A stretch of 64,000 bases of DNA from Gammaproteobacteria bacterium (GTDB taxonomy: Bacteria > Pseudomonadota > Gammaproteobacteria > JAJFKO01), in NCBI GenBank assembly GCA_021773175.1, contig JAJFKO010000064.1, forward strand, positions 122,773 through 186,772. Direction: 5' to 3'. Made by a program: the position numbers and the translations under genes. The notes under the pieces are model-generated. The model was given only the letters and a program-made list of their open reading frames with translations. It was not told where the DNA came from and ran no database searches. Below are positions 52,099-53,097 of the stretch, one piece after another (positions within the stretch are counted from its first letter, which is position 1; every line of letters starts with the position of its first letter).

Positions 52099-53097
52099 TT
52101 AGCTCCAAAAGTTAATCATTTGAGTGTTATCTAGGGCAAATTGCCTCAGCTTTAGCATTGCATCAATTCCATCACATGTTCTTTCGACATGAGCAGGTTT
52201 ACCTGGACGATCTCCTAATCCCCCACCAATATTTTTGCTTATTTCAATTAACCACTGCACTGCTTTACAAGCAGAATGAAAAACTTCAGTTACTACATCT
52301 TTATTTTTAGATCTACTGGAGGTTAGCATCATGGCTCTAATTGCATCACATGTATGATCGGTATTTCCGTTATCCCAATGACCAATATGATGTTGCAATT
52401 TAATTAATTCTCTAATTGCAAGATCATGTTCTTTCGCATGCCCATAATAAGTAGCACATTTCTGCAATAAATGGGCGGTTATTGTTACTGGAGAGCCTGT
52501 TAATTTATAATACCATAGCCCATTATCATGTCTGTTCGATAAAATAAATTTCATACCTTGGTCTAAAGCCTGTCGGTGTTTTTCTTCAATAAAATTTTCT
52601 TTTAATACAAATAATAAAGTACCAACGGATGTACTCGCTGCATCGAGGAAGTGCCAAGTAGGATCGTCCCAAGAGCCATTGCTTTTTTGGGCGGAAATAA
52701 TGTAATCTAAGCCACTTAAGATACTAGTCTGAACAGTTTGTACATGTAATATACGATTTGCTCTAAGCAACATTTGTACACAAAATGCAGTTGAGCGAAT
52801 TTTACTTTCTTGATCATTTTTTGTATTACCCCAACCACCATCTTTATTTTGGCATTTGCAGATATCTAATATGTCATTTTTATATTTATCAATAGATAGA
52901 TCTTGGATACGAACTCTAAGCACATGATTAGTTACCTCAAGATCTGCGTCATAATCCAGCTTCCATTCATTTTCATGCTCATCAATGAATTGATAGGCTA
53001 TCGGTAAATAGTTGCTTATTTCTCTATCAAGGAAACTATTAGCGAACTCTTTTGCATTTGAGAAGTTTTGGCGAGATAGGCTAGCTACTTGGTCCAT
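52099..53097 (-). CDS. Prenyltransferase/squalene-cyclase repeat protein, (alpha/alpha) barrel
   Basis: QW-like repeats QNKDGGWG, QKSNGSW, RHDNGLW, QHHIGHW, GGGLG; STAF, HTCDA and RTCDG segments; no DxDD motif seen. Confidence 0.75.
   Translation of the reverse strand: MDQVASLSRQNFSNAKEFANSFLDREISNYLPIAYQFIDEHENEWKLDYDADLEVTNHVLRVRIQDLSIDKYKNDILDICKCQNKDGGWGNTKNDQESKIRSTAFCVQMLLRANRILHVQTVQTSILSGLDYIISAQKSNGSWDDPTWHFLDAASTSVGTLLFVLKENFIEEKHRQALDQGMKFILSNRHDNGLWYYKLTGSPVTITAHLLQKCATYYGHAKEHDLAIRELIKLQHHIGHWDNGNTDHTCDAIRAMMLTSSRSKNKDVVTEVFHSACKAVQWLIEISKNIGGGLGDRPGKPAHVERTCDGIDAMLKLRQFALDNTQMINFWS

Follow-up and report, generated by a model that had tools for sequence, protein, structure and literature searches.

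The toroid gene and its operon

We analyzed a stretch of 64,000 nucleotides (nt) of a gammaproteobacterial genome (contig JAJFKO010000064.1, positions 122,773 to 186,772; hereafter the window) and focused on the gene at positions 52099..53097, whose product of 332 residues we call the toroid protein. This gene is the first of ten co-directional genes, all on the minus strand, which together form a phosphonate operon. What is new here is a putative core enzyme, uncharacterised and of known fold, in a known type of phosphonate cluster. The features of the locus are the following (the homologous loci L032 and L040 are introduced below).

53098..53917, no strand: 820-bp region upstream of the operon, between the toroid gene and the divergent M16-peptidase genes, presumed promoter region
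52099..53097, minus strand: toroid protein gene, 332 residues (ATG at 53097, stop at 52101-52099; open reading frame (ORF) and translation)
50952..52094, minus strand: homocitrate/isopropylmalate-synthase-like protein, candidate 2-phosphonomethylmalate synthase of the FrbC/HvrC/PsfB type (PF00682, 1.4e-73, plus HCS_D2)
49732..50961, minus strand: aconitase/isopropylmalate-dehydratase large subunit, HvrE-like (NF001614, 395 bits, over the cutoff; PF00330)
49251..49835, minus strand: dehydratase small subunit, HvrD-like (TIGR02087, 116.5 bits, over the cutoff)
48393..49238, minus strand: class I S-adenosylmethionine (SAM) methyltransferase, in the HvrF slot (Methyltransf_11, 7e-22)
47466..48389, minus strand: phosphoenolpyruvate (PEP) mutase, PepM (TIGR02320, 380.5 bits against a cutoff of 319.6; motif EDKTFPKMNS)
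46916..47560, minus strand: isochorismatase-family hydrolase, accessory (PF00857, 9e-36; only in window-type clusters, syntenic in L032 and L040)
45780..46919, minus strand: protein of 379 residues with an N-terminal signal-like segment, accessory (no Pfam or NCBIfam match)
44993..45775, minus strand: TauE/SafE-family membrane protein, probable exporter (PF01925, 1.7e-41)
44801..44971, minus strand: rubredoxin of 56 residues, last gene of the operon (ORF with CxxC...CxxC; NF045768, 2.7e-20)

The stop codon of the toroid gene and the ATG of the HMGL/homocitrate-synthase-like gene (52094) are separated by 4 nt (52098-52095). An earlier reading of the sequence without database searches (the sequence-only reading) had placed the gene 4 bp from the synthase start and at the head of a phosphonate operon, and both the gap and the PepM score bear this out. 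The synthase-like protein reaches 419 bits with TIGR02660, which is under the NifV cutoff, and its orthologues adjoining toroid homologues are 43-59% identical. The role of this type of synthase is described in PMC7858074 and in the flavophos preprint. The methyltransferase also shows a weak match to trans-aconitate methyltransferase (1e-9). Following the published logic of the pantaphos, FR-900098, and fosfomycin pathways, the first steps of the operon would lead from PEP to phosphonopyruvate, then to 2-phosphonomethylmalate and to 2-phosphonomethylmaleate.

Two of the listed ORFs overlap the preceding genes, the dehydratase small subunit by 104 nt (49732-49835) and the isochorismatase by 95 nt (47466-47560). 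Since the alignment of the small subunit with its homologues begins only at residue ~25-30, its real start is probably internal, near Met31; the isochorismatase probably starts at an internal Met too. The protein of 379 residues has a 40% identical orthologue in L032 and a syntenic gene of 373 residues in L040. We considered this exported protein as a counterpart of the HprK-like protein of ~365 residues found in other clusters, and rejected the idea because the two have no similarity. The 820-bp upstream region contains no ORF of at least 80 residues. Its comparison with Rfam gave no credible match, with two chance hits below the gathering threshold at E~0.5, and a scan for promoters and terminators found sites no more numerous in it than in shuffled sequence. 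The GC content of the operon (34.7%) agrees with that of the window (36%). The sequence comes from a biofilm metagenome. Its FtsY protein is no more than about 70% identical to anything in 5.8 billion clusters, the named matches being Methylophaga, Piscirickettsiaceae, and Thiohalophilus, and none of the window proteins that were looked up shares a 90%-identity cluster with another protein. The host is thus an AT-rich gammaproteobacterium from a poorly sampled group.

Sequence motifs and fold of the toroid protein

A string scan of the toroid protein counted four QW-like repeats of the form Q/RxxxGxW: QNKDGGWG (83-90), QKSNGSW (137-143), RHDNGLW (189-195), and QHHIGHW (235-241). Further strings are GGGLG (291-295), HTCD (248-251), and RTCD (306-309). 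The sequence-only reading had described a protein of 332 residues with about five QW-like repeats; all the strings that it quoted are present, on a gene of the minus strand, and its count becomes four repeats plus GGGLG. Its observation that the DxDD motif is lacking stands, as no D.DD or DD..D string occurs anywhere in the 332 residues. The repeat element matching the position of DxDD reads N-T-D-H-T-C-D.

The matches of the protein to Pfam and NCBIfam are at the level of repeats only. Three Pfam models, SQHop_cyclase_C (2.3e-7), Prenyltrans (3.8e-6), and TED_complement (3.4e-5), are all barely over the gathering score: PF13243 scores 30.6 against 26.1, over residues 79-148 only, PF00432 scores 27.0 against 26.5, over residues 72-159 only, and PF07678 (TED) scores 23.5 against 22. 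The NCBIfam cyclase models TIGR01507 and TIGR01787 score 43.7 and 32 against cutoffs of 431.1 and 322.7, respectively. The alignments of the toroid family to squalene-hopene cyclase (SHC) obtained with hidden Markov models also cover single repeats only. Still, the resemblance to cyclase and prenyltransferase repeats exceeds chance. The thioester motif CGEQ of TED domains does not occur in the sequence, and LANC_like (PF05147) gives no Pfam match at E<=1.

We modeled the protein with AlphaFold2, using an alignment of 33 sequences, and obtained an all-helical structure (pLDDT 94.5, pTM 0.91) with six pairs of outer and inner helices, i.e., an (alpha/alpha)6 toroid. The search of PDB with Foldseek returned alpha/alpha toroids exclusively, at 11-18% identity. 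The best were the monodomain class II terpene cyclases 8PAK and 8PAJ (TM 0.66-0.69), followed by MstE (6SBB, TM 0.61-0.63), the glycoside hydrolase families GH88 and GH76 (TM about 0.6), and complement-type TED domains (TM about 0.57), the latter being top by E-value. The sequence-only reading had predicted an alpha/alpha barrel, and no other fold was seen. The toroid protein is a cytoplasmic single-domain (alpha/alpha)6 toroid.

When the profile of the toroid family was compared with PDB sequences, squalene-hopene cyclase came first (8e-18), and RabGGTase beta and other prenyltransferase beta subunits came far lower (E=0.03). The family descends from the class II cyclase branch, not from prenyltransferases, and has no near solved relative. 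Judged by its sequence, the toroid protein lacks what defines a class II cyclase, a prenyltransferase beta subunit, a LanC protein, or a TED domain.

A rare family found in phosphonate clusters

A word-indexed search for homologues of the toroid protein retrieved 127 proteins. The closer group of homologues is 39-70% identical to it (297-343 residues), and the distant group about 27-34% identical (321-356 residues), with some members annotated as 'terpene cyclase/mutase family' in Omnitrophota. When 1.84 billion representatives (clusters at 50% identity) were searched exhaustively with a profile, 33 reached E<=1e-30, and a clear gap separates these from generic cyclase-repeat proteins. With so few representatives and such a gap, the profile scores indicate that the family is rare and discrete. 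We also scanned contigs for the pattern Q[HN]xDGGWG. Only L001 proved to be a real member of the family, and the other 26 loci, which encode ordinary SHC-repeat proteins, were set aside.

We examined the neighborhoods of 13 homologue loci, ten from the closer group (L001, from Paenibacillus glacialis DSM 22343, L028, L029, L030/31, L032, L033, L037, L038, L039, and L040) and three from the distant group (L034, L035, and L036). Phosphonate genes are present at all 13, in addition to the window. PepM occurs in about 5% of genomes according to a published abstract, and a linkage at 13 of 13 loci is thus far from chance. The sequence-only reading had suggested checking co-occurrence with pepM, and this co-occurrence turns out to be anything but rare.

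All ten closer loci encode PepM, the HMGL-type synthase, and the methyltransferase within a few kb. The large and small subunits of the aconitase/dehydratase are found in nine of them; the remaining locus, L037, lacks the pair within its contig. The toroid gene mostly abuts or overlaps the synthase or the PepM gene, and the full gene order of the window is repeated in L032 and L040. The three distant loci, whose toroid proteins are 28-32% identical over their full length (E about 1e-35 to 1e-42), are aminoethylphosphonate (AEP) or phosphonolipid clusters. They encode a PepM-cytidylyltransferase fusion, a split phosphonopyruvate decarboxylase (Ppd), an AEP transaminase, a CDP-alcohol phosphatidyltransferase, and an LPG_synthase_TM protein. 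In all three, a Rieske protein of 104-121 residues with intact CPH...CP[LM]H ligands is encoded -10 to +6 nt after the toroid gene.

We define the PepM-linked toroid family as single toroids of 310-335 residues with the motifs NHxxR, DA(T/A)S, TAHL(L/I)Q, (D)HT(C/M)D..R, and TCDxxDxxxK, encoded inside a phosphonate cluster. The window protein has all these motifs, which are conserved in both alignments, and lies inside such a cluster. At every locus examined, the family is found only in phosphonate clusters, and its closer subfamily is a core gene together with PepM, the synthase, and the methyltransferase. We also considered the toroid protein as a resistant copy of a housekeeping target. We rejected this, since at the loci examined the family members occur in phosphonate clusters alone, and since they do not have the catalytic motif of the housekeeping proteins nearest to them. 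We found no paper mentioning a toroid protein in clusters of the phosphonomethylmalate type.

Could the family perform true isoprenoid chemistry, prenylating the phosphonate or cyclising a prenylated phosphonate into a phosphono-terpenoid? In sequence and structure alike, it is nearest to class II terpene cyclases (the SHC match and the Foldseek matches to 8PAK/8PAJ given above), the operon of L034 holds a squalene-hopene cyclase, HpnH, HpnG, Dxs, and IspH, and a polyprenyl synthase is encoded about 8 kb away in L028. However, the protein has neither DxDD nor another Asp-rich motif, and its NCBIfam cyclase scores (32-44 bits) are far from the cutoffs (323-431). Isoprenoid genes are missing from the window operon and from 11 of the 13 homologue loci, and the operon encodes no prenyltransferase alpha subunit, the match to the prenyltransferase beta profile being only E=0.03. 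The invariant residues of the inner helices, described below, are charged or polar. We thus regard isoprenoid chemistry as very improbable, and the toroid protein very probably does not work as a prenyltransferase or as a class II terpene cyclase. The prenylation or cyclisation of the phosphonate put forward in the sequence-only reading finds no support in these data, as no isoprenoid gene is conserved with the family; the evidence favors the fallback that this reading offered, a new reaction on this fold. A published remark holds that 'cyclases' near ppm in Nitrosococcus hint at phosphonoterpenes; for the toroid family, the present results argue against this.

Conserved residues and the central pocket

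The alignment revealed 19 positions that are invariant or near-invariant in both groups: E54, H58, R61, R112, D145, D152, S155, H209, D242, D247, H248, T249, D251, R254, T307, C308, D309, D312, and K316 (near-invariant are E54, H248, and C308). In the model, the conserved residues sit on the helices that follow the DGGW loops (53-65, 100-117, 150-164, 204-218, 246-260, and 304-322), with the exception of D145 and D242, which are in loops. On the helices they are spaced by i, i+3/4, i+7, and among the inner-helix invariants Arg, Lys, His, Asp, Gln, Ser, and Cys predominate. Given the known topology of toroids, such an arrangement suggests that the conserved helix residues line a central pocket.

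Seven inner-helix positions are fixed differently in the closer and the distant group: N57A, Q65H, R101W, Q108L, G159F, K213D, and C250M (closer to distant). The pocket of the closer group would be more cationic and roomier, and that of the distant group would have Trp, Leu, Phe, and Met, plus Asp. The pathway intermediate would be a phosphono-dicarboxylate in the closer group, as predicted, and an amino-phosphonate in the distant one. Because the differing positions track these expected substrates (R101 and K213 against W and D), the ligand of the toroid is probably a small polar phosphonate particular to each pathway. It would be neither an isoprenoid chain nor the shared product of PepM. 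The His/Asp/Cys cluster that both groups share would do the same kind of chemistry in both, probably with a metal.

These patterns bear on two further explanations. The first is that the toroid is non-catalytic, either a phosphonate-binding protein for immunity or sequestration or a scaffold coupling PepM to the next enzyme. Its linkage to PepM in two chemically different pathways and the direct adjacency of its gene to that of PepM or the synthase would be in line with such a role, as would the fact that toroid domains such as TED, which is among the top Foldseek matches, act as binding modules. Yet some 20 polar residues of the inner helices stay the same even in homologues of 28% identity, as is typical of catalytic sites, and pocket residues that change with the pathway point to a pathway-specific ligand instead of the shared PepM or phosphonopyruvate. 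The coupled Rieske partner is also hard to square with a passive binder, and we find this explanation improbable.

The second is a thiol-alkylating enzyme in the manner of LanC or protein prenyltransferases, in which Zn bound by Cys, His, and Asp would activate the thiol of a peptide or a small thiol, which then adds to the electrophilic double bond of phosphonomethylmaleate. Two known toroid families work by metal-activated thiol chemistry, and adjacent inner helices of the toroid protein have conserved Cys, His, and Asp. Six of the closer clusters also encode PqqD-like, nucleotidyltransferase-like, and HprK-like P-loop proteins; four or five of these six have, in addition, a gene for a conserved peptide of 53-76 residues, a hint of a peptide substrate. 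The window-type clusters, however, have no such peptide or PqqD-like gene, the putative peptides have no conserved Cys, C250 is replaced by Met in the distant subfamily, and no LANC_like match was found in Pfam at E<=1. Thiol alkylation seems to us highly doubtful.

Proposed role in phosphonate tailoring

Hvr-like clusters conserve HvrA-F, and HvrB, a flavin monooxygenase, has been proposed to hydroxylate phosphonomethylmaleate to give pantaphos (PMC7858074). The window operon has equivalents of HvrA, C, D, E, and F, with the toroid as an additional core gene, and the searches of Pfam and NCBIfam revealed no luciferase-like or flavin monooxygenase among its ten genes. The published pantaphos cluster has no such toroid protein, in agreement with the sequence-only reading.

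As the best overall explanation, which we advance tentatively and with slightly less than even confidence, the toroid protein is a dedicated phosphonate-tailoring enzyme in the HvrB slot, with a possible redox step. It would take the position in the cassette that the flavin monooxygenase HvrB has in pantaphos-type clusters and act after the synthase or the dehydratase. The argument for this slot is one of position only. It is likely that the toroid is an enzyme binding a small, highly anionic phosphonate in the central pocket, either 2-phosphonomethylmalate or, more probably, 2-phosphonomethylmaleate. The phosphonate could be held by R61, R101, R112, R115, K213, R254, and K316, and the invariant cluster of H58, D152, H209, D247-H248, D251, C250/C308, D309, and D312, probably with a metal, would carry out the catalysis. 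With more doubt than for binding, we suggest that the reaction is a redox step, in its simplest form an oxidation that tailors the phosphonomethyl carbon or a position next to it; we would not be surprised to find otherwise. The rubredoxin of the operon would supply the electrons, a parallel to the Rieske ferredoxin with which the distant subfamily is translationally coupled.

The rubredoxin is a candidate electron carrier for the toroid protein. It is found in four AT-rich clusters (the window, L032, L040, and L037), and no other product of the window-type operon is an evident client of a rubredoxin. In L037 its gene starts 41 nt after the toroid stop codon, on the same strand, a layout that echoes the toroid-Rieske layout of the distant group. 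The rubredoxin genes of L037 (11013-11171) and L040 (9870-10040, minus strand) are uncalled in the source annotations, being short enough for gene callers to miss.

Several points weigh against the proposed role. We know of no toroid-fold enzyme that has a ferredoxin-type partner or that oxygenates a substrate. No iron carrier is encoded in the six high-GC clusters (L028, L029, L030, L033, L038, and L039) or in that of Paenibacillus (L001), and the redox link is thus not universal in the closer group. No reductase for the rubredoxin or the Rieske protein is encoded nearby, and in L037 a radical-SAM enzyme could be the client of the rubredoxin. Since this cluster lacks the aconitase genes within its contig, the substrate may be 2-phosphonomethylmalate or even phosphonopyruvate instead of the maleate. 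Finally, the assignment of the invariant residues to a single pocket, as suggested by the model, follows from the order of the helices and the periodicity.

That most of the closer clusters have no electron carrier would also fit a cofactor-independent acid/base enzyme, which isomerises, hydrates or dehydrates, or decarboxylates phosphonomethylmalate or -maleate by means of Asp, His, and Cys, the rubredoxin and Rieske genes serving other ends. It could, for example, feed the trans-aconitate-methyltransferase-like enzyme by a cis-trans or allylic isomerisation, or carry out an itaconate-type decarboxylation. Other (alpha/alpha)6 toroids have acid/base chemistry on unsaturated carboxylates or alkenes: the GH88 unsaturated glucuronyl hydrolase, linalool dehydratase-isomerase, and AGE-type epimerases. 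GH88 is among the Foldseek matches and among the precomputed Pfam matches of several homologues. Moreover, C250 and C308, in equivalent TCD motifs on adjacent inner helices, resemble the arrangement of two-base isomerases, and the conserved methyltransferase resembles trans-aconitate methyltransferase. But this explanation accounts neither for the invariably coupled Rieske protein of the distant subfamily, which has the same catalytic core and which in L035 has no other plausible client, nor for the rubredoxin directly after the toroid gene in L037. AEP, in addition, has no double bond or carboxylate for such chemistry. We consider acid/base catalysis unlikely, albeit with a chance that deserves attention.

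The redox step can be taken further, in a version that we regard as speculative and rather unlikely. The toroid would then be the catalytic subunit of a new iron-carrier-dependent oxygenase or oxidoreductase on the terpene-cyclase scaffold, in which a metal bound by His, Asp, and Cys hydroxylates the carbon next to phosphorus. Such a hydroxylase would convert phosphonomethylmaleate into a pantaphos-like alpha-hydroxyphosphonate in the window operon, with rubredoxin as carrier, and AEP into its 1-hydroxy form in the phosphonolipid clusters, with the Rieske ferredoxin. Its function would be convergent with those of HvrB and of the 2-oxoglutarate dioxygenases PhnY*/FzmG.

Variation among the clusters

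The high-GC versions of the cluster add four genes, encoding a conserved peptide of 53-76 residues (motif ...ELxIxNxSRIPxE...), a PqqD-like protein of 95-101 residues, a nucleotidyltransferase-like protein, and a P-loop protein of ~365 residues that is distantly HPr kinase-like. These genes lie at 8511-9765 and 14723-15850 in L028, 8913-9086 and 10966-12042 in L030, 7240-8639 and 10952-12076 in L033, 7443-8775 and 10934-12031 in L038, and 4858-5019, 6063-7160, and 10788-11866 in L039. They look like a recognition set in the style of ribosomally synthesized and post-translationally modified peptides placed on a phosphonate pathway. None of the four is present in the window.

The cluster of L037 (contig JAHZTO010005511.1) is a variant that comprises PepM, the synthase, the methyltransferase, a class III aminotransferase, a PHP-like protein, the toroid, the rubredoxin, an ABC exporter, a radical-SAM enzyme of 531 residues, and a leucine-rich-repeat protein. 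As it adjoins a MobA/MobL relaxase gene, it may be mobilisable. Beside the closest syntenic clusters (L032 4567-9611 and L040 11099-11586) there are eukaryote-like genes for an ankyrin-repeat protein of 1327 residues and for proteins of the mitochondrial-carrier family, which points to intracellular or amoeba-associated bacteria as their hosts.

In Paenibacillus glacialis DSM 22343 (L001 12633-16089), the core cassette is accompanied by a beta-lactamase-fold protein, an acyl-CoA-dehydrogenase-like flavoprotein, a class II aminoacyl-tRNA-synthetase-like protein, and a carrier protein, and this set suggests an amino-acid-conjugated phosphonate as the product. In the Omnitrophota locus L034 (1285-15692), the genes of a squalene-hopene cyclase, HpnH, HpnG, an HpnA-like epimerase, Dxs, and IspH are interleaved with a complete AEP pathway, CDP-alcohol transferases, and the toroid-Rieske pair. 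This operon is a candidate for the production of a phosphonate-decorated hopanoid.

Significance

Phosphonates are a proven source of antibiotics and herbicides, and the pathways by way of 2-phosphonomethylmalate are rarer and less explored than any others. Several families of clusters of this type, with unknown products, are listed in a 2026 preprint. The core gene that now defines one such cluster family lacks both an assigned function and a Pfam or NCBIfam model of its own, and the same protein family recurs in the chemically unrelated AEP clusters. Should the toroid prove to be an enzyme, the phosphonate toolbox would gain a reaction and the terpene-cyclase/prenyltransferase fold a new function; should its partners be rubredoxin or Rieske proteins, it would be the first redox enzyme on that fold. 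The automated labels 'squalene cyclase' and 'prenyltransferase' mislead genome mining into calls of 'phosphonate-terpene' hybrids. Because one carrier, Paenibacillus glacialis DSM 22343, is in culture, the question can be approached by experiment.

Comparison with known systems

The monodomain class II cyclases (8PAK, 8PAJ, and MstE 6SBB) and the beta domain of SHC share with the toroid protein the single (alpha/alpha)6 toroid of ~330-365 residues and the QW-type repeats. In contrast to them, the toroid protein has no DxDD, the identity is only 12-17%, the conserved inner-helix residues of its family are Arg, Lys, His, Asp, and Cys instead of aromatic, and the context of its gene is that of phosphonates, not isoprenoids. 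The beta subunits of protein prenyltransferases (FTase, GGTase-I, and RabGGTase) have the same fold and size, and the repeat 'GGLGDRPGK...T..GID..LKL' of the toroid protein looks like one of theirs. The Cys, His, and Asp of the toroid are at the N-termini of adjacent inner helices, which we take to be where these subunits hold their Zn ligands. The toroid gene differs in having no alpha-subunit gene nearby, and its context implies neither a CaaX-type substrate nor a supply of prenyl diphosphate.

HvrB, from the pantaphos hvr cluster of Pantoea ananatis (PMC7858074), has the same place in the logic of the cassette as the toroid protein, and both may act on 2-phosphonomethylmaleate. The folds are unrelated, and the toroid has no flavin or luciferase-like domain. 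The window cluster falls outside the definition of the Hvr type, in which HvrA-F are all present, because it has no HvrB. It also differs from the FR-900098 type, as there is no isocitrate-dehydrogenase-like FrbE gene in the operon or in the homologue loci.

The toroid-Rieske pair of the AEP clusters (L034-L036) resembles the window protein in its full-length homology, its phosphonate context, and its small iron protein partner. It differs in its pathway (PepM-cytidylyltransferase fusion, Ppd, and AEP transaminase), in the seven inner-helix positions that are fixed differently, and in its partner, which is always adjacent and is a Rieske protein, not a rubredoxin. Across these differences, the pair shares with the window protein the invariant core of H58, R61, R112, D152, H209, D247, D251, R254, C308, D309, D312, and K316.

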